Below are positions 8,490 to 16,315 of a DNA stretch of 41,819 nt, piece by piece. The notes under the pieces were generated by a model. That model was not told the origin of the DNA, did not search any database, and saw only the letters and a list, made by a program, of their open reading frames with translations. How positions within the stretch are numbered: position 1 is the first letter of the stretch; each line of letters begins with the position of its first letter. Location: sequence record SRR31156797_617, one strand, 5' to 3'. A program made the position numbers and the translations under genes.

Positions 8490-8509
8490 TTCATTAAATA
8501 TTGTACAAT

Positions 8510-9304
8510 ATGAAACAAATTGTATTATTAATTCTTAACTCACTTTCTTTGATATTTGCATTGGTTTTCAATGGATTACAGGGTAGTAGTTTGTTTGGTG
8601 GAAAGTCAGTAGGTGAAATAAGTCGAAATTATGATACACTCATTGCACCTGCAGGTTATGCATTTGCTATTTGGGGCATTATTTACCTTATGTTGATACT
8701 ATTTGTGATATATCTATGGGTGGTTTGGTCTCAGAAACGACATGGTGATGATATAGTACGTATTAGTTTCTGGTTTGTTTTGGGTAATATTGCTAATGGA
8801 TTATGGATTGTAGCCTGGCTGAATGAGTATTTTGCTTTATCTGTGATATTAATATTTACAATATTGCTATCTCTAATAATGTTAACTATCAGGTTGCGAT
8901 TGGAAATATGGGATGCACCAATGCGAATAATCTTTTTTGTTTGGTGGCCCATTGTAATTTATTTGGGATGGATTGTGGTAGCTTCAGTAGCTAATGTAGC
9001 TGTATGGTTAGTGAGTACAGGTTGGGATGGTGGTTTTTTGACTCCTGTAACCTGGACCATCATAATGATTGGAGTAGCTACTGTTATTTATCTGATGCTC
9101 ATAAAAACACGTAACATGCGTGAGGCTGCTGCAGTTGGAATTTGGGCATTTGTAGCAATAGCAGTAAAGCACTGGGACAAAATTGACTCAATAGCCTATG
9201 CAGCATTGATTGCCTCTGGTATATTGTTTATTGCAATTTCGTTTCATGCATACTTGAACAGGAAAACATTACCTCATAATAAGTTGATTCGAAAAGAAAT
9301 ATAA
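8510..9304 (+). CDS. Trp-rich integral membrane protein (TspO/MBR-related)
   Basis: PAGYAFAIWGIIY and IYLGWIVVAS motifs; about 8 TM helices; ATG 8510 preferred to TTG 8501. Confidence 0.72.
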   Translation: MKQIVLLILNSLSLIFALVFNGLQGSSLFGGKSVGEISRNYDTLIAPAGYAFAIWGIIYLMLILFVIYLWVVWSQKRHGDDIVRISFWFVLGNIANGLWIVAWLNEYFALSVILIFTILLSLIMLTIRLRLEIWDAPMRIIFFVWWPIVIYLGWIVVASVANVAVWLVSTGWDGGFLTPVTWTIIMIGVATVIYLMLIKTRNMREAAAVGIWAFVAIAVKHWDKIDSIAYAALIASGILFIAISFHAYLNRKTLPHNKLIRKEI

Positions 9305-9305
9305 A

Positions 9306-10391
9306 ATGACCAGCATAACGAAACCGACCCTATTACTCGACGAAAAAAAATGCAGATTAAACATCCGTCGAATGGCTTACAAAGCCAGCGAGAACAATGT
9401 ATCTTTTCGACCTCATTTTAAAACTCATCAATCATTGGAAATTGGACAGTGGTTTAAAGAAGAAGATGTTACAAAAATTACAGTTTCGTCTGTTTCAATG
9501 GCGGAATACTTTGCTCCCGAATGGAATGATATCTTAATAGCTTTTCCTGTCAATATTCGGGAAATAGACCAAATTAATAATCTTGCTGAGCGTATTTCGC
9601 TTCAGTTAGTAGTAGAAAGTGTAGAAACAATTGGATTTTTATCTCAAAATCTTAAAAGTCAGGCCGGATTCTATATAAAAATTGATGCAGGTTACGATCG
9701 AACAGGTGTGGATGCCGCAAATTATGAATTAGTTGATCAAATCTTACAAAAAGCTCAAGAAAGCGAAAAGCTTGAATTCACTGGATTTCTCTCCCATGCA
9801 GGCCACACTTACAATACTGATTCAATTACAGATATTTTTAAAATTCGCAATGAGGAGAATTTAGCCATGCTGCAGTTAAAAGCTAAATATATTGGAGCCC
9901 ATCCTAATATAATAGCTTCCATTGGCGACACACCATCATGCAGCTTGGCTGACCATTTTTCCGGTATTGATGAAATCCGTCCCGGTAATTTTGTATTTTA
10001 TGACCTGATGCAGTTGAGTTTGGGATCTTGTACGCCGGAACAAATTGCAGTTGCCATGGCTTGTCCGGTGGTGGCGATTCATAAAAACCGTAATGAAATG
10101 GTAATTTATGGTGGCGGCGTACATTTTTCCAAAGACATGATTCAAATTAATGAAACTTCTATTTACGGGCAAGTTGTTGAAAAAGAAAATGATGGATGGG
10201 GTCAGCCCATTCCCAAAATGATTGTAAAACGGTTATCTCAGGAGCACGGAATCATTCATTTACCCGACGAATATTTTGACAAGTTTAAGGTTGGGGATCT
10301 TGTGTATGTATTGCCTGTTCATTCTTGTATGACTGCGGATATATACGACTCTTATATTACTACAAAGGGCAAAGTAATCAGTCGGTTCTAA
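9306..10391 (+). CDS. PLP-dependent fold-type III enzyme, D-threonine aldolase/D-serine dehydratase (DSD1) family
   Basis: FRPHFKTH (PLP Lys), HAGHTY, GDTP, EIRPGNFVFYD, LSQEHG and PVHSC metal motifs. Confidence 0.88.
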   Translation: MTSITKPTLLLDEKKCRLNIRRMAYKASENNVSFRPHFKTHQSLEIGQWFKEEDVTKITVSSVSMAEYFAPEWNDILIAFPVNIREIDQINNLAERISLQLVVESVETIGFLSQNLKSQAGFYIKIDAGYDRTGVDAANYELVDQILQKAQESEKLEFTGFLSHAGHTYNTDSITDIFKIRNEENLAMLQLKAKYIGAHPNIIASIGDTPSCSLADHFSGIDEIRPGNFVFYDLMQLSLGSCTPEQIAVAMACPVVAIHKNRNEMVIYGGGVHFSKDMIQINETSIYGQVVEKENDGWGQPIPKMIVKRLSQEHGIIHLPDEYFDKFKVGDLVYVLPVHSCMTADIYDSYITTKGKVISRF

Positions 10392-10685
10392 GACTACTTC
10401 TTAATACCTTTTTAAGTTTCGCAAAACTCCTTTTTAATTCAAAAGGTAGGGTAAATCCATTTTTATTCGGCTATATATAAAAGCGAATGAGAAATGTATG
10501 ATTGTTATGAGCTAAGGTGCTGGTTAATGTCTATAAAAGTGTATAATACCTTTAAAATTCTGTTAGAGTAATAAAATTTTCACAGATACAAAAAGGCTTT
10601 CTACTGAATTCTGCCTGTCACTTATTGATCATTTTTGATTTCGCCTTTTTTACACCTTAATATTGACTCATTAAACAAATAATTA

Positions 10686-11432
10686 ATGAAAGCTATTGAA
10701 ACGATATTGGACATGTATTATCCAGTGTCTCTTAAAGAAATGGATAATGTGAAATTAATGAACAGGGTCGACACTAAGTTTGTGTGTCATCCGGGAATGC
10801 TTCCTCTTTTATTATTTGATGTTTTAAAAGACTATAAAGTGCTTGAAATAGAAGGCGGTCGAATTATGCCTTACCGGACTATCTATTTTGACACACCAGA
10901 TTTTAGCATGTATAACCAACATCAAAATGGTAAACTCAATCGATATAAAGTTAGAAATCGTGAGTATTCAGTTTCAGATCTTCATTTTATAGAGATTAAA
11001 TTTAAGAATAATAAAGGGCGCACAATTAAGAATCGGATTCCAGTAAGCAATACGTTAGACTATCTTGATTTAAATGAGCTTTTGTTTGTTGACAAAAACA
11101 CTCCTTATACTGCAACGGAACTTGAAGCTAAATTGTGGAATAGTTTTAAAAGAATTACACTAGTTGGGCAAGATGAACGCGTGACAATTGATTTTGGATT
11201 GTGTTTTAGTGATGTTTTTGGAAGCGAAAAAAAATGCTTTGATATTGCCGTTATAGAAACCAAACAATCTTCACGTAATTTACAGTCAGGTATAGCACTA
11301 TCACTTAAGAAGAACGGGGTAAGACCACAGAACTTTAGTAAATATTGTATGGGAGCATCTGTTCTTTTTGACCATTTGAAAAGTAATAGATTAAAATCTA
11401 ATCATCTAGTAATAAGTAAAATATCAGCATAA
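10686..11432 (+). CDS. VTC-domain (polyphosphate polymerase-like, CYTH/TTM fold) protein
   Basis: LMNRVDTKF, IYFDT, RYKVRNREY, IEIKFK, ERVTID, IETK and FSKYC motifs typical of bacterial VTC-domain proteins. Confidence 0.85.
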   Translation: MKAIETILDMYYPVSLKEMDNVKLMNRVDTKFVCHPGMLPLLLFDVLKDYKVLEIEGGRIMPYRTIYFDTPDFSMYNQHQNGKLNRYKVRNREYSVSDLHFIEIKFKNNKGRTIKNRIPVSNTLDYLDLNELLFVDKNTPYTATELEAKLWNSFKRITLVGQDERVTIDFGLCFSDVFGSEKKCFDIAVIETKQSSRNLQSGIALSLKKNGVRPQNFSKYCMGASVLFDHLKSNRLKSNHLVISKISA

Positions 11433-11433
11433 A

Positions 11434-12144
11434 ATGAGTATCATTTCATCAATATTATCATCTATTCCCATTTTAAATGCAGAAAAAATTGATTTAGAAC
11501 TATTCAATATCGATATCATCGATATGGAAGATTTTAGCGAATTGATTATTCGATTTGTATTTAACCTGGTTGTGAATTTCATTATTGTTAAAGTTTTGTA
11601 TTATAACGCTACTAAGCGGAAAGATTACCTTTTCACTTACATTCTAATTAGTGTTGTTGTTTTTCTTTTATGTTTTCTATTAGAGAATGTAAAATTAGAG
11701 CTCGGCTTTGCACTGGGCTTGTTTGCCATTTTCGGAATAATCCGATACCGCACCATTACAATTCCAATTAAGGAAATGACTTATCTCTTTATAGTCATTG
11801 GATTATCTGTAATAAATGCACTTGCAAATAAAAAGGTAAGCTATGCTGAGTTAATTTTTACGAATCTGGCTGTAGTTGGAGTGGTCTATTTACTTGAACG
11901 TATATGGCTACTCAAACATGAGGGAAGTAAGCGCATCACTTATGAAAAAATTGATCTTATAAAACCAGAAAATTATCAGTTATTAATTGAGGATTTGAAA
12001 GAGAGAACGGGGCTGGATATCAATAGAGTTGAGATTGGAAAAATCAATTTTTTACGAGATACGGCTGAGGTAAAAATATACTATTTCAATGGAATAAATA
12101 GTATGGAATGTGACGATGATCAATTTCCAATAATCGAAGAATAA
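11434..12144 (+). CDS. DUF4956-like inner-membrane protein
   Basis: LGFALGLFAIFGIIRYRT and KEMTYLF motifs; about 5 TM helices plus a soluble C-terminal domain; 1-nt gap after the VTC gene. Confidence 0.85.
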   Translation: MSIISSILSSIPILNAEKIDLELFNIDIIDMEDFSELIIRFVFNLVVNFIIVKVLYYNATKRKDYLFTYILISVVVFLLCFLLENVKLELGFALGLFAIFGIIRYRTITIPIKEMTYLFIVIGLSVINALANKKVSYAELIFTNLAVVGVVYLLERIWLLKHEGSKRITYEKIDLIKPENYQLLIEDLKERTGLDINRVEIGKINFLRDTAEVKIYYFNGINSMECDDDQFPIIEE

Positions 12145-12174
12145 GTAAGCCGTATAGTAATTTAAAAAAGAAGC

Positions 12175-12867
12175 ATGATAAGCAATAGAATAAGAACTAC
12201 GATAATCTTAATTTGTGTTTTAGTAATCTCAGCTTATGCCCAGGAAGAAGATACAAAAGTTGTGAAAGATCTTGAGCTATGGACAAGTGCCGGTATATCC
12301 AAAAAATTAAAAAAGCATTGGAAACTTTCTTATGATCAGGAAGTACGCTTTTTAAATGATATGTCTGAGTTCAGCACCTGGTTTTCTGACCTGGGTGTCG
12401 ATTACAAATTGAATAAGCATATTAGATTTGGGACTAACTACAGATTTTATCAAATAAGAGAAGATAATAATCAATTTGAAAGCCGACATCGGTTTAGTGC
12501 AGATTTCAAATACAAACATAAAATCGAAAGATTTGAATTGGAATATCGTCTCAGGGCGCAAAATAAAGATGAAGACTTTATGGGTAATGAAACCGGGGAC
12601 AATGTTTTTAATTTTAGGAATAGATTATCGGTAGCGTATGATATTAAGAATTTTAAGGCCCAACCATTTTTTGATGTAGAACTTTACAGGCGTATTTATG
12701 ATATGCAAAGTGGTAAGTTCAGTAAGCTAAGGTGGACGCTTGGTGTTGAATTTCCTGTGTATAAGAAAAGTGATGTCAAGCTGTTTTACAGGCTTGATAA
12801 TGAGCTGAATAAAACATATGCTAAAGACACATACATAATAGGTGTTGGCTATTCATTTTCATTTTAA
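12175..12867 (+). CDS. DUF2490-like outer-membrane beta-barrel protein
   Basis: Signal peptide (AYA|Q), amphipathic beta-strands, RNRLSVAY motif, C-terminal GVGYSFSF ending in Phe. Confidence 0.78.
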   Translation: MISNRIRTTIILICVLVISAYAQEEDTKVVKDLELWTSAGISKKLKKHWKLSYDQEVRFLNDMSEFSTWFSDLGVDYKLNKHIRFGTNYRFYQIREDNNQFESRHRFSADFKYKHKIERFELEYRLRAQNKDEDFMGNETGDNVFNFRNRLSVAYDIKNFKAQPFFDVELYRRIYDMQSGKFSKLRWTLGVEFPVYKKSDVKLFYRLDNELNKTYAKDTYIIGVGYSFSF

Positions 12868-12888
12868 AACCACAAAAAAAACAACAAT

Positions 12889-14304
12889 ATGAACAGGATA
12901 AGAAGTAATAACATGAATTTTGTATTGATCACATTATTGGCTTTCTTTTTAAGCATTTCATGCCATGAAGAGGTTGTGGTAGATGATAATGGAGATACCT
13001 CAGGTCAGGGCCTTCCTGATTGGACAACTCAGACGCATTCAGATAACGCAGAGCCAAATTATTCCATGATTTTTCCGCAAGAGCGCGTGAATCGAATCGA
13101 CATTGTTTTCGAGACAGATGAATGGGAAGCAATGCTCCAGGATATGACAGACAATCTTGGTGAGTTTGGAACCGGAGGTGGTCCACCACCGCCGCCCCCT
13201 ATTTTTAAATCTATTACAAATGAGGATTTTACTCCTGTATTTCAACCAGCATCAATTTTCATGGATGGTATAGAATGGTATCATGTGGGAGTACGCTTTA
13301 AAGGCAATTCAAGCTTGCGGTCAACATGGAGTATGGGCTGTTACAAGTTTGCATTTCGATTTGATTTTGATGAGTTTGAAGATGTGTATCCCGAAATAAA
13401 CGACCAACGATTCTATGGATTCCAAAAGATTGCTTTTTCAAATAATTTCAATGATAGATCATTTCTGCATGAAAAAGTTGCAGCTGATATATTCAGGTCT
13501 GCAGGTATTCCGGCACCGCAGACAGCATATTACACCATTTACGTCGATTATGGCGAAGGACCAATATATTTTGGATTGTATACTGCAGTTGAAATTGTAG
13601 AAGATACAATGCTCGAAGAACAATTCGGAAATAGCGATGGCAACTGCTATAAGCCAGAATACGATGGAGCTACTTTTGCCGATGGGACATTCTACACACC
13701 TGATTTCGATTTAAAAACCAATGAAGACATTGCTGATTATAGTGATGTGGAAGCACTATACAACATTATTAATTCAGATCTTCGAACAACAGATGTAAAT
13801 CAATGGAAGAGTGAGCTTGAAGCAGTATTTGATGTGGATGCCTTTATGCATTGGTTGGCAGTAAATACAACCATTCAGAACTGGGATACTTACGGTATAA
13901 TGAGTCATAATTATTATTTGTATCACAATACTGCCACTGACAAATTAGTATGGATTCCGTGGGATAATAATGAGGCACTTAGTGATTTTATGAGAGAGCC
14001 ACTACCACTCTCAATGGATATCGTAACATCTGATTGGCCTTTAATTAAATACCTCATTGAGCAAGATGATTATAGAGCATTGTACGAGAGTTATTTGCTT
14101 CAAACTATTGAAGGTCCGTTTAATCCTTCAACCATTAAAAACACGTACCAGTACTATCATGATTTAGTTGCTGATTATGCTGAGGCTGAGCAGGAAGATT
14201 ATACTTTTTTGCATACAATTTCAGATTTCACGAATGCGCTGGATGAGCAAAATGATCATGCTGATCGCCGATATGATGCAGTTATGGAATATCTTGGAAG
14301 ATAA
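12889..14304 (+). CDS. CotH kinase family lipoprotein (start could be ATG 12913)
   Basis: Lipobox LSIS-C; GVRFKGNSS, NWDTY..MSHNYYLY and WIPWDNNEAL CotH atypical-kinase motifs. Confidence 0.86.
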   Translation: MNRIRSNNMNFVLITLLAFFLSISCHEEVVVDDNGDTSGQGLPDWTTQTHSDNAEPNYSMIFPQERVNRIDIVFETDEWEAMLQDMTDNLGEFGTGGGPPPPPPIFKSITNEDFTPVFQPASIFMDGIEWYHVGVRFKGNSSLRSTWSMGCYKFAFRFDFDEFEDVYPEINDQRFYGFQKIAFSNNFNDRSFLHEKVAADIFRSAGIPAPQTAYYTIYVDYGEGPIYFGLYTAVEIVEDTMLEEQFGNSDGNCYKPEYDGATFADGTFYTPDFDLKTNEDIADYSDVEALYNIINSDLRTTDVNQWKSELEAVFDVDAFMHWLAVNTTIQNWDTYGIMSHNYYLYHNTATDKLVWIPWDNNEALSDFMREPLPLSMDIVTSDWPLIKYLIEQDDYRALYESYLLQTIEGPFNPSTIKNTYQYYHDLVADYAEAEQEDYTFLHTISDFTNALDEQNDHADRRYDAVMEYLGR

Positions 14305-14339
14305 TTACATTTATATAGCGGAAGATTGATAGTAGGGTT

Positions 14340-14386
14340 AGTCCGGAATTGTTATTTTTGAAGTAAAATAATAATTCCGGACTTTT
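14340..14386 (+). terminator. 19-bp-stem hairpin after the CotH operon; probable terminator overlapping a -7 box
   Basis: AGTCCGGAATTGTTATTTT (14340-14358) pairs with AAAATAATAATTCCGGACT (14365-14383) with one G-U, followed by a short T run. Confidence 0.6.
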
Positions 14387-14920
14387 ATGAATGAACGCAA
14401 ATTAATACTCTACATAGCCTGCTCACTAGACGGTTACATATCCAAACCCAATGATGATTTGAGTTTTCTTGACCGCATGCAACAAGAAGGAGAAGATTAC
14501 GGTTATGGAGATTTTATTAAAGATGCAGACACCATAATAATTGGTCGCAAAACCTATGAATGGGTAATCAATCAGGGATTTGAATACCCGCATCACGATA
14601 AGGATGTGTATGTAATTACGCGCACCGGCAAACCAAAAGAAGGTAATGTGACTTATTATGCCGGTGATGTCAAAAAGCTTGTGCAAAACATAAAACAAGA
14701 AGAAGGTAAAAACATATACTGTGACGGTGGTGCTGAAATTGTAAATCTGCTCTTAAAAGAAAAGCTTTTCGATGAGTTAATTATTTCTATCGTACCTGTG
14801 GTTTTGGGAGAAGGAACCAGATTATTCAATGATAATTATCCCGAACAAAATCTTGAGTTAATTTCAGCTACCAGTTTCGATAAGGGCATGGTGCAGTTGC
14901 GGTATAAGATTGAATCATAA
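14387..14920 (+). CDS. Dihydrofolate reductase/RibD C-terminal domain protein
   Basis: YIACSLDGYI, IIGRKTY, GGAEI and PVVLGEGTRLF motifs. Confidence 0.88.
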   Translation: MNERKLILYIACSLDGYISKPNDDLSFLDRMQQEGEDYGYGDFIKDADTIIIGRKTYEWVINQGFEYPHHDKDVYVITRTGKPKEGNVTYYAGDVKKLVQNIKQEEGKNIYCDGGAEIVNLLLKEKLFDELIISIVPVVLGEGTRLFNDNYPEQNLELISATSFDKGMVQLRYKIES

Positions 14921-14947: not shown

Positions 14948-16315
14948 ATGAAAACATCACTCACAATCATTTTAACTGTGATAATTGGTTTTTTAATTGC
15001 CCAAAATGATGACCATTTTAATAAACCCTATATTTTATTTTCTGAAAGTGGGGATTTTTATTTGAGATCAATACCCTTTAATGAACAACCAATAGATCAA
15101 TCAGGTATTACATCAATATTTAATTCAAAAAGCGATGAAGTAGTATATTCAATTAGCCGATATTTTAATTCTAGTGGCATTGCTTTAAGTAATGATGGGC
15201 AATCTGTATTGTGTATTGAGGAATATATTATCATGGATGAAGAGCATCTTGTTTTATATTATAGAAATGGTGAGTTAATTAAGACGTATTGTGCAAATCA
15301 GTTTGTGGATAGAATAGACAAAAAACACAATAATTTCCATTATAAATTTCTTCAAGGTGAGGTTAAAATGGATGAACATTATGAAGTATTCGTGAATCTC
15401 GCCGAGAAACCAATAAGAGTTAATCAAGATTATGTTTATTACGCAAGTTCAAATTCTGAGTTAGTTGTGTTTGATCTGAACACAGGTATCATAGAGCAAA
15501 AACACCGCATCGATATTAATTTTAACGAAGATATCTTGCGAATTGATAAAAGAAAGTTTAATTGGATCGAACATCAATTGCCTCTAAGAAATGGATTCCC
15601 AGAATTGATAAATGGAAAGGCATTTAGCAAAGTGTTTGAAGAAAGATTTGGTTTTAAAAAGTGCATTACAACAAACGGCTTTTTTGGATATTATTTGGAG
15701 TTTTCATGTGTCATTGATAATACTGGTTCTTGTATTGATGCAAATGTTGATTTTAGTGATTCAACCTTAAATAGTGAAATAGAAAGGTTTTTATTGAAGT
15801 TACGTTTTAATAAGGATGTTGTTAAAGACCCCTTTCCGCAATGGCATTTTTATCACAATGAGCTTTATAGATTAGCAGATTTAAATTTAGCAAAAAAAGA
15901 ATTTCATGAGTTTTTAGAGAAAAACCGTAAGAAATGGCAGCAACAAGTTAAAAGAAAATCAATTAATGGTAACTATATACCAAAAAATATAAATGATTGT
16001 TTCAGAGAACTTGATAAATTTCTCTCTAATGATCAAAAAGATACTTTAAAGCAAGTCCATAGAATTAGTTTTTTTGAAGATTTGGAAATAGATTTGATTG
16101 AGAAATGGTCCTTGAGAGAAGGTTCAAGGTTGCAAAAATATTTTTTAGATTTGGGAATAAATGATCATCAAAAAATGGCTCATATTATTGTGGAAACCTA
16201 TTATAGAAATTCTACAAATCAAGACATTAGGTTTCACGAGCTAATTGAAAAGCATAAATCTTCTGAAATTGATGTCTATGAATCAATTTGGAGGAAAGGT
16301 AAAGTTTATAAGTGA
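14948..16315 (+). CDS. Secreted hypothetical protein with a C-terminal DUF6794-like domain
   Basis: Signal peptide (LIA|Q); C-terminal YIPKNINDCFRELDK...WSLREGSRLQKYF..LGI. Confidence 0.6.
   Translation: MKTSLTIILTVIIGFLIAQNDDHFNKPYILFSESGDFYLRSIPFNEQPIDQSGITSIFNSKSDEVVYSISRYFNSSGIALSNDGQSVLCIEEYIIMDEEHLVLYYRNGELIKTYCANQFVDRIDKKHNNFHYKFLQGEVKMDEHYEVFVNLAEKPIRVNQDYVYYASSNSELVVFDLNTGIIEQKHRIDINFNEDILRIDKRKFNWIEHQLPLRNGFPELINGKAFSKVFEERFGFKKCITTNGFFGYYLEFSCVIDNTGSCIDANVDFSDSTLNSEIERFLLKLRFNKDVVKDPFPQWHFYHNELYRLADLNLAKKEFHEFLEKNRKKWQQQVKRKSINGNYIPKNINDCFRELDKFLSNDQKDTLKQVHRISFFEDLEIDLIEKWSLREGSRLQKYFLDLGINDHQKMAHIIVETYYRNSTNQDIRFHELIEKHKSSEIDVYESIWRKGKVYK

Follow-up and report, generated by a model that had tools for sequence, protein, structure and literature searches.

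In a window of 41,819 nucleotides (nt), the whole stretch of DNA analysed here from the sequence record SRR31156797_617, we studied four plus-strand genes of a marine Bacteroidales genome that encode a VTC-domain protein, a DUF4956 membrane protein, a DUF2490 outer-membrane barrel and a CotH-family kinase-like protein. The most fitting description of this module is a VTC + DUF4956 core accompanied by envelope partners that vary with the lineage. Judging from conservation, the four genes very probably form a functional unit, while the protein families, the fold of the VTC-domain protein and the genes neighbouring the core make it likely that the chemistry of the module concerns a phosphate polymer. 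Our best reading, held tentatively, is that of a polyphosphate synthase and exporter combined with a conduit in the outer membrane and with a client kinase outside the cytoplasm. The features of the locus are as follows (aa, amino acids; ORF, open reading frame; bp, base pairs):

10392..10685, plus strand: upstream intergenic spacer of 294 nt with a probable promoter and 5' leader; the prior ORF ends at 10391
10686..11432, plus strand: VTC-domain protein of 248 aa (PF09359), candidate polyphosphate polymerase and cytoplasmic triphosphate-tunnel enzyme
11434..12144, plus strand: DUF4956 inner-membrane protein of 236 aa (PF16316), candidate translocase
12175..12867, plus strand: DUF2490 outer-membrane beta-barrel of 230 aa with a signal peptide (PF10677)
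12889..14304, plus strand: CotH-family kinase-like protein of 471 aa (PF08757), probable lipoprotein
14340..14383, plus strand: hairpin closing the gene set, with a 19-bp stem that includes one G-U pair and a 6-nt loop

The layout described in an earlier note on this DNA was found in full: four co-oriented genes with gaps of 1, 30 and 21 nt in the ORF list, the 294-nt spacer before them and the 19-bp hairpin behind. Its four domain calls were likewise confirmed in a hidden Markov model check, where all Pfam matches lay well above their cut-offs. The best explanation of the locus is that the four genes constitute one transcription unit, which represents the Bacteroidota form of a widespread VTC + DUF4956 core.

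This core emerges from the conservation of gene order. A DUF4956 alignment scan with one genome per species yielded 573 relatives, and we analysed the best 80 loci, all of them Bacteroidota or so labelled, by searching their ORFs with local profiles. The VTC gene lay directly upstream of DUF4956 in 72 of these 80 loci; three of the eight exceptions were cut by a contig end, and five had room for a VTC gene but carried none. A DUF2490 gene was present after DUF4956 in 52 loci. To count CotH neighbours we used a clean CotH-domain profile, without type IX secretion tails or lamin-tail domains, which placed CotH beside the module in 14 of the 80 loci. Of the 42 loci whose 7-kb flanks were complete, 9 had such a CotH, where chance adjacency would, by a rough estimate from 5-22 matches per 4-6 Mb genome, amount to a few per cent. 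In seven of these 14 loci CotH stood upstream of VTC with a small lipoprotein gene between them, and in four it was convergent, after the barrel or after DUF4956. Because the arrangement recurs in related genomes it does not reflect chance co-location, and because CotH flanks the pair in only 14 of the 80 loci the four-gene order of the window is a minority form.

The phyletic pattern was determined in 301 Bacteroidota genomes sampled evenly across the phylum, with a threshold of E <= 1e-10 for CotH. Matches to DUF4956 were found in 91 genomes, to VTC in 48, to CotH in 117 and to DUF2490 in 103. All 48 VTC genomes also contained DUF4956, and the listed places put both genes side by side. CotH was equally present in 48/48 VTC genomes, compared with 69 of the 253 genomes that had no VTC, so that the dependence is asymmetric: VTC implies CotH, and not the reverse. 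CotH is a multi-copy family, with 5-22 matches elsewhere in five Bacteroidota genomes whose module has no local CotH. Among the DUF4956 matches, those of 22 genomes are window-like (E <= 1e-39) and the others divergent. DUF2490 was detected in 22/22 genomes with a window-like DUF4956 as against 81 of the 279 others, and VTC was detected in 19 of the 22. A second kind of pair, consisting of a strong VTC and a divergent DUF4956, stood beside CotH in several genomes. One genome has both kinds.

Divergent DUF4956-like genes in 43 genomes without VTC were also considered as CotH partners, and were dropped because all seven loci that were fetched share one unrelated gene order. The one of these seven that was scanned with Pfam carried BrkB, YceI, DUF6580, HlyD-like and SDR genes. 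The DUF4956-like gene of locus L082 (5328-6011; the same gene occurs in L081 and L083-L087) encodes 227 aa that match DUF4956 profile positions 5-105 only, and its context consists of BrkB, MPG, YceI, DUF6580, an HlyD-like gene, a 410-aa protein that belongs to no family, SDR and GSDH, with no VTC. This type of gene probably belongs to another system.

The core was found well beyond the Bacteroidota. A tblastn search of DUF4956 against plasmid records returned 10 records, whose contexts were taken from annotations and Pfam. An adjacent VTC/DUF4956 pair occurred in Deinococcus (2 records), Nitratireductor, Aminobacter, Enterococcus and Paenibacillus, that is, in Deinococcota, Alphaproteobacteria and Bacillota. 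The arrangements were:

Deinococcus taeanensis: CotH, a polyphosphate-polymerase-domain protein and DUF4956 in a row
Deinococcus sp. QL22: VTC and DUF4956, beside a HAD acid phosphatase and phnDCE
Aminobacter: DUF4956, VTC and a phytase-like protein
Nitratireductor: DUF4956, VTC, a PHO4-family phosphate transporter and a phytase-like protein
Pseudoalteromonas: a lamin-tail protein, a 104-aa VTC remnant (profile end only), DUF4956 and a Porin_O_P phosphate-selective porin, which matches at E 2.4e-47 and starts 1 nt after DUF4956
Enterococcus faecalis plasmid: VTC, DUF4956 and CotH on one strand within 5 kb
Paenibacillus replicon: an adjacent VTC + DUF4956 pair

Among 14 control genomes, VTC, DUF4956 and CotH were all present in B. 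thetaiotaomicron, Corynebacterium glutamicum and Methanosarcina acetivorans, and CotH alone was present in Bacillus subtilis.

Fusion proteins agree with these gene associations. A search for longer DUF4956 relatives gave 18 proteins, which were analysed by their Pfam coordinates and sequences. DUF4956-CotH fusions formed two clusters, in which a hydrophobic segment resembling a lipoprotein signal lies between the domains, and DUF4956-DUF2490 fusions formed eight clusters, one of them of 36 members, with a stretch resembling a signal peptide between the two domains. The evidence for a VTC-DUF4956 fusion was weak, consisting of one protein in which the VTC part is truncated. Since the clusters were seen repeatedly, read-through in gene calling is an unlikely source of these proteins. 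In these fusions each of the three partners would be tied to DUF4956, in keeping with the topology proposed below: with the C-terminal domain of DUF4956 inside the cell, CotH would be led by the fusion segment to the outer side, where DUF4956 has its exit.

The VTC-domain protein of the window matched PF09359 at E 1.3e-27 with 97.3 bits (cut-off 23) over the whole profile (1-235/235). Neither a signal peptide nor a transmembrane helix was found in the predicted model, and according to Pfam the 248-aa protein consists of the VTC domain alone, with no SPX domain. Its AlphaFold2 (AF2) model showed a soluble alpha/beta tunnel with a predicted local distance difference test (pLDDT) score of 91.3. 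The best Foldseek matches were yeast Vtc4 structures (3g3r/3g3q, E ~1e-12, TMq 0.61-0.63), followed by Vtc3, Vtc2, E. coli YgiF (5e-10) and other tunnel enzymes (1e-7 or weaker); plant TTM3 was among the fold matches, and the margin of Vtc4 over Vtc2 and YgiF was modest. Residues R27, K31, R86, K88, R90, R92, K105, K115, R117 and R156 are invariant in the VTC clade, as are R165, E191, K193 and S218-K219. Profile alignment to Vtc2 placed R90/R92 on R-L-R, K105 on E-K-K and R156 on Y-T-R. In the accessible part of a study on yeast Vtc4 (10.1101/2023.01.27.525886), K200, R264, R266, K281, Y359, R361, E426, S457 and K458 are named as critical, and K458 is given as the only key residue that differs in the inactive Vtc2 and Vtc3. 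The portion available of a Nature Communications paper confirms R264, R266 and E426, and describes a 3:1:1 pentamer of three-helix domains in yeast VTC. We infer from chain order only that K31, E191 and S218-K219 are the equivalents of K200, E426 and S457-K458.

The DUF4956 protein matched PF16316 at E 1.4e-55 and shares 60-88% identity with many Bacteroidota relatives, the closest of which (79-88%) came from metagenome bins of Bacteroidales and Salinivirgaceae. Its model (pLDDT 70) contains five predicted helices in residues 31-162, followed by a small beta-alpha-beta-beta domain that is weakly ACT-like. Ten charged residues in or beside the helices are invariant (R40, R62, K63, D64, E84, R104, R106, E114, K133 and E139). 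On the positive-inside rule, the two basic loops (57-65 and 104-115) and the likewise basic beginning of the C-terminal domain should be cytoplasmic, which would leave the acidic N-terminus outside. Structural searches gave no further lead: Foldseek against the PDB returned nothing at E <= 0.001, the DUF4956 profile had no match among PDB sequences, the protein atlas contained no usable match, and the best Z of 9.3 in the wide VIA-align search, on transporter helix bundles, lies within the stated noise for helical models. A relation between DUF4956 and MgtC was considered and set aside, as it rested on one divergent member: Pfam assigned DUF4956 only, with no MgtC match, to 17/17 members of the window type. 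The divergent member, at L091:5718-6383, is a DUF4956 of the second pair type that matched MgtC weakly (E 4.2e-06). In MgtC proteins, too, a membrane domain is joined to an ACT-like tail.

For the barrel, the match to PF10677 reached E 3.4e-25 and that to OMP_b-brl E 1.7e-06, while PF07396 (Porin_O_P) gave no match in Pfam. The protein starts with a signal peptide ending AYA/QEE. Conserved among 53 module-linked DUF2490 proteins are arginines 58, 90, 106, 125, 148 and 186, together with D32 and E169. Since each arginine is flanked by hydrophobic or aromatic residues, all six probably face the lumen. DUF2490 is listed as a putative porin under TCDB 1.B.81 in the text accessible from PMC4827864.

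The CotH protein matched PF08757 at E 1.5e-65 and, over residues 171-412, B. cereus CotH (5jd9) at E 5e-12. D333 (QNWD) and D359 (IPWD) align with the Asp residues of NFD and PWD in 5jd9, which are 23 residues apart, the same spacing as that of D228 and D251 in B. subtilis CotH; the D228Q and D251A changes are reported, in the part of PMC7821199 at hand, to inactivate the latter protein. Both Asp residues were kept in 11 of 12 aligned module-linked CotH domains. The leader of the window protein is hydrophobic and ends LSISC, which makes Cys25 a probable, though not canonical, lipobox cysteine, and acidic residues follow Cys25. In Bacteroidota, lipoproteins at the surface are marked by acidic residues behind the lipid-modified Cys. 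A signal-peptide-like leader was present in 15/15 module-linked CotH proteins with a complete N-terminus, namely that of the window and 14 out of 16 from related loci, where the count omits L042_67 and L079, which are cut by a contig end. Most other module-linked CotH proteins carry type IX secretion tails and lamin-tail domains. No sporulation genes were identified by Pfam among the neighbours of the window CotH, which itself carries a signal peptide and Cys25. The signal peptide of DUF2490, and the leader and Cys25 of CotH, bear out the earlier view of both proteins as extracytoplasmic partners.

Small proteins of ~165-180 aa were noted upstream of the module in three Bacteroidota loci (L058:5265-5771, L065:5257-5796 and L074:3286-3801) and in Pseudoalteromonas (L093:5225-5719). 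By Pfam, those of L058, L074 and L093 contain a lamin-tail domain only, and that of L065 was assigned by size and local profile. The same lamin-tail domain is also fused to many module-linked CotH proteins.

In the mechanism that we tentatively propose, the cytoplasmic VTC enzyme would take the gamma-phosphate of ATP and build polyphosphate in its basic tunnel in the manner of Vtc4, as its homology and fold suggest. The chain would then be taken over by the conserved basic loops of DUF4956 on the cytoplasmic side and passed across the inner membrane, and we somewhat favour the outward direction. By position and by analogy, the DUF2490 barrel with its six conserved lumen arginines might then let the polymer reach or cross the outer membrane. 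The CotH lipoprotein, with no ATP at its site, could possibly use the exported polymer as phosphoryl donor for surface proteins or glycans, a step that we regard as rather doubtful. CotH would be one of several alternative clients on the outside, as phytase-like or acid phosphatase genes join the core elsewhere. Polyphosphate as the donor for CotH is an attractive idea that agrees with the fusions, yet it is unproven, has less than an equal share of our confidence, and is not required by CotH proteins in general. More speculative still is its extension across phyla, in which VTC + DUF4956 would be a polyphosphate-making and export machine of bacteria, and probably archaea, whose polymer would be the phosphoryl and energy currency of ATP-free compartments and would feed secreted or surface CotH proteins, sometimes fused to the exporter exit, with neighbouring phosphatases recycling the product and an arginine-lined barrel added in Gram-negatives.

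Several observations weigh against the tentative synthase-exporter-kinase reading. The sequence link of the VTC-domain protein to solved VTC proteins is weak, as the single sequence had no match among PDB sequences and the profile reached Vtc2 at E 0.0027, and the tunnel-enzyme fold includes triphosphatases such as YgiF. Moreover, an invariant Phe154 occupies the position aligned with Tyr359 of Vtc4, where, according to the accessible text of the yeast study, Y359F leads to less polyphosphate (10.1101/2023.01.27.525886). Profile and fold searches detected no relation between DUF4956 and the Vtc1-type channel. DUF2490 is a broad family that, in 103/301 Bacteroidota genomes, extends well beyond the module, and an open pore is not assured because many DUF2490 models contain a buried network of charges and salt bridges, which the available portion of 10.64898/2026.07.29.741452 reports for 238 of 2,789 models and describes as consisting of two cations, two anions and a tyrosine. 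The CotH protein is very acidic, with 27 K+R versus 81 D+E residues and a net charge of ~-54, which does not favour binding of a polyanion unless cations bridge the two. Since 69 of the 117 CotH genomes are without VTC, the CotH family does not generally depend on the module. Three of the 22 genomes with a window-type DUF4956 show no VTC, one of them keeping DUF4956, DUF2490 and CotH. The Fisher values of the phyletic comparisons overstate significance because the counts ignore shared ancestry. Finally, the co-conservation assumed in the earlier note stood, with VTC and DUF4956 behaving as a split unit (adjacent in 72/80 loci; together in 48/48 VTC genomes), but the exact four-gene order of the window occurs in 3/80 loci only and CotH flanks the pair in 14.

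The alternatives differ in what they make of the polymer and of its direction. The module might export polyphosphate as a periplasmic or surface store, cation chelator or matrix, a counterpart in bacteria to the vacuolar store of yeast, with the phosphatases, phytase-like proteins and CotH nearby mobilising, trimming, anchoring or regulating the polymer and CotH not using it as a donor. This would fit the homology to the yeast enzyme, which deposits its polymer on the non-cytosolic side according to the accessible parts of two sources (10.1101/2023.01.27.525886; Nature Communications paper), the metallophosphoesterase and phytase-like genes that lie beside the core where CotH is missing, the many CotH genomes without VTC, and the position of the trio next to loci for the cationic Pel polysaccharide in Gram-positives, as described in the available text of 10.1101/768473. 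However, the DUF4956-CotH fusions and the intact catalytic Asp residues suggest that CotH is an enzyme at the exit, and an active kinase fold outside the cell would still need a donor; the envelope pool of polyphosphate in these organisms is a putative one. We consider export without a donor role fairly unlikely. Less likely again is that the barrel and DUF4956 take up pyro-, tri- or polyphosphate from outside, with VTC acting as a (tri)polyphosphatase or as a polymer-to-ADP transferase. The outward direction is the default by homology, and uptake is a live rival to it, given the phosphate-acquisition neighbours in other phyla (Porin_O_P, PHO4, phnDCE, acid and phytase-like phosphatases), the many tunnel enzymes that are triphosphatases, with YgiF and plant TTM3 among our fold matches, and the Phe at the Tyr359-equivalent position. 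Yet the best fold and family matches belong to the polymerase branch and not to the triphosphatases, the Lys by which active Vtc4 differs from the inactive Vtc2/3 appears to be present, in so far as its position was mapped by inference, and uptake leaves the tie to secreted kinases and CotH fusions unexplained. As yeast VTC genes are themselves phosphate-regulated, a phosphate-acquisition context does not settle the direction.

It is improbable that no polymer is involved at all, in which case VTC would be a regulatory or nucleotide-processing protein, DUF4956 a membrane regulator or ion transporter with an ACT-like tail, and the link to CotH regulatory. Such a scheme would accommodate the weak likeness of the DUF4956 C-terminal domain to ACT regulatory domains, the weak MgtC match of one divergent member (E 4e-6), and the divergent DUF4956-like gene that occurs without VTC in an unrelated HlyD/SDR context in 7/7 loci (one of them Pfam-scanned). 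The uniform lack of MgtC matches in the 17 window-type proteins speaks against it, and the recurring phosphate porin, transporter and phosphatase neighbours, together with the outer-membrane partner, point to a phosphate species that is transported. That the four genes are mere neighbours with no common function is the least probable of all. CotH and DUF2490 are multi-copy, so that some adjacency by chance is possible, but adjacency recurs across orders and phyla in differing gene orders, the phyletic counts are 48/48 and 22/22, and fusion proteins exist.

Compared with known systems, the module most resembles the yeast VTC complex (Vtc4/Vtc3/Vtc1), with which it shares the PF09359 tunnel family, the closest solved fold (Vtc4), the conserved basic tunnel residues and the obligatory pairing of the enzyme with a membrane protein. 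It differs in that SPX is absent, enzyme and membrane part are encoded by separate genes, and Phe stands at the Tyr359 position; in place of the pentamer-forming three-helix domain of the Vtc1 type there is DUF4956, with five helices and a cytoplasmic alpha/beta domain, and an outer-membrane barrel and a kinase are added. PPK1 and PPK2 would make the same presumed product from ATP, but have unrelated folds and a cytoplasmic product. Bacillus CotH (5jd9) shares PF08757 with the window protein (E 5e-12) and both Asp residues required for activity. In contrast to the window CotH, which is very acidic, carries a signal peptide and Cys25 and comes from a non-sporulating lineage, Bacillus CotH acts with ATP on coat proteins in the mother cell. 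OprO is selective for polyphosphate. Like the phosphate- and pyrophosphate-selective porins OprP/OprO, the barrel would be arginine-rich; it is encoded right after DUF4956, where Pseudoalteromonas has a true Porin_O_P, but DUF2490 is smaller and belongs to another family, so that the relation is one of position and not of family.

No functional study turned up in the full-text literature searched on DUF4956, on DUF2490, on VTC-domain proteins and on CotH together with VTC and polyphosphate. To this extent the earlier note was right in knowing of no functional description; the association of CotH, VTC and DUF4956 is, on the other hand, partly in print already, without a function. According to the available text of Whitfield et al. 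(10.1101/768473), cotH, a polyphosphate polymerase gene, DUF4956 and DUF4832 are accessory genes of Gram-positive pel loci, and a regulatory kinase role was suggested. For S. intermedius, the accessible portion of another study (10.1101/2024.04.20.589940) reports a CotH-FN3 protein that is secreted, a protein resembling VTC and a membrane protein in which four helices are combined with an ACT domain, and its authors suggested that the polyphosphate stays cytoplasmic. The pel-linked cluster thus has the same three families contiguously and a CotH that is predicted to be secreted, and in the parts available to us neither source draws a link between DUF4956 and export (10.1101/768473; 10.1101/2024.04.20.589940). 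The window differs from this cluster by its Gram-negative envelope, the lack of a pel locus, DUF2490 in place of DUF4832 and a CotH that is a probable lipoprotein. No pel or DUF4832 domain was detected among the eight window proteins scanned with Pfam.

In bacteria, polyphosphate is ascribed to PPK1 and PPK2 and regarded as a cytoplasmic polymer. If our tentative reading is true, a Vtc4-like synthase with an exporter would provide a second route to polyphosphate that places the polymer in the envelope, and it would offer a testable answer to the question of where secreted kinase-fold proteins without ATP obtain their phosphoryl donor. The module is common, being present in 48/301 Bacteroidota genomes, among them those of gut Bacteroides, as well as in biofilm loci of streptococci and clostridia and on a plasmid of Enterococcus, so that its function would bear on surface biology, biofilms and phosphorus cycling.

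Expression of the window genes was examined in four metatranscriptome runs from a single marine sample, in which short contigs 95-100% alike were found; carry-over of DNA is possible in these libraries. Some parts of the stretch were without RNA contigs, to which we attach no meaning, and the complete stretch is present in one DNA run that may be its source. Contigs lie on all four genes, one (10509-10767) spans the junction between the spacer and VTC, and another (12870-13037) spans that between the barrel and CotH. They agree, weakly, with a single transcript. Contigs stop at 14321-14332, just 5' of the hairpin at 14340-14383, which is a weak hint that the hairpin closes the gene set. This hairpin has a folding energy of -24.9 kcal/mol (z -6.5), and 0 of 200 shuffles folded equally well. 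It is absent from the list of the terminator scan; the U tract after it is short (3-4 U), and the next ORF starts at 14387, 3 nt beyond. The sole terminator-like match, at 13177-13196 inside CotH, was rejected as a terminator because it arises from the G+C-rich Pro and Gly codons of a Gly-Gly-Gly-Pro(x7) linker. Sigma-70-like matches in the scan were at chance level, with 18 found and 19.1 expected from shuffles. NCBIfam contained no family for any of the four proteins, giving one sub-threshold match only.

Two further gene types were frequent around the module in the 80 related loci and absent from the window. A secreted protein of ~138 aa (131-156 aa) that belongs to no Pfam family is encoded upstream of VTC in 35/80 loci (e.g. 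L036:950-1366, directly upstream of VTC), and contains YD-like repeats with the rough consensus Y-K-Y-D-x-x-G-x-x-x-E. A lipoprotein of ~250 aa with one to three carboxypeptidase-regulatory-like Ig domains was found in 31/80 loci (e.g. L061:223-975), where its gene either precedes that of the 138-aa protein or lies between CotH and VTC. In two Bacteroidota loci without VTC (L089:6387-9158 and L090:6419-8871), a purple-acid-phosphatase-like metallophosphoesterase gene follows a window-type DUF4956; a protein of 341-356 aa without a Pfam family also follows DUF4956 there. B. thetaiotaomicron has DUF4956 and DUF2490 adjacent as BT3498-99 (PMC10434189); an iron study of this species lists the two together with lower levels in iron depletion, although not significantly. 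Locus L029 (PBNL01000005.1), labelled as a Methanobacteriota archaeon, encodes a DUF4956 that is 71% identical to that of the window among Flavobacteriales-like neighbours, and this contig may be mis-binned.

Within the window, the ORF before the spacer is a D-serine dehydratase-like gene, and a RibD_C gene also flanks the set (Pfam). Two further genes near the module encode a 267-aa multi-pass membrane protein without a Pfam family (8501-9304) and a 455-aa protein with a DUF6794 domain at its C-terminus (14948-16315).

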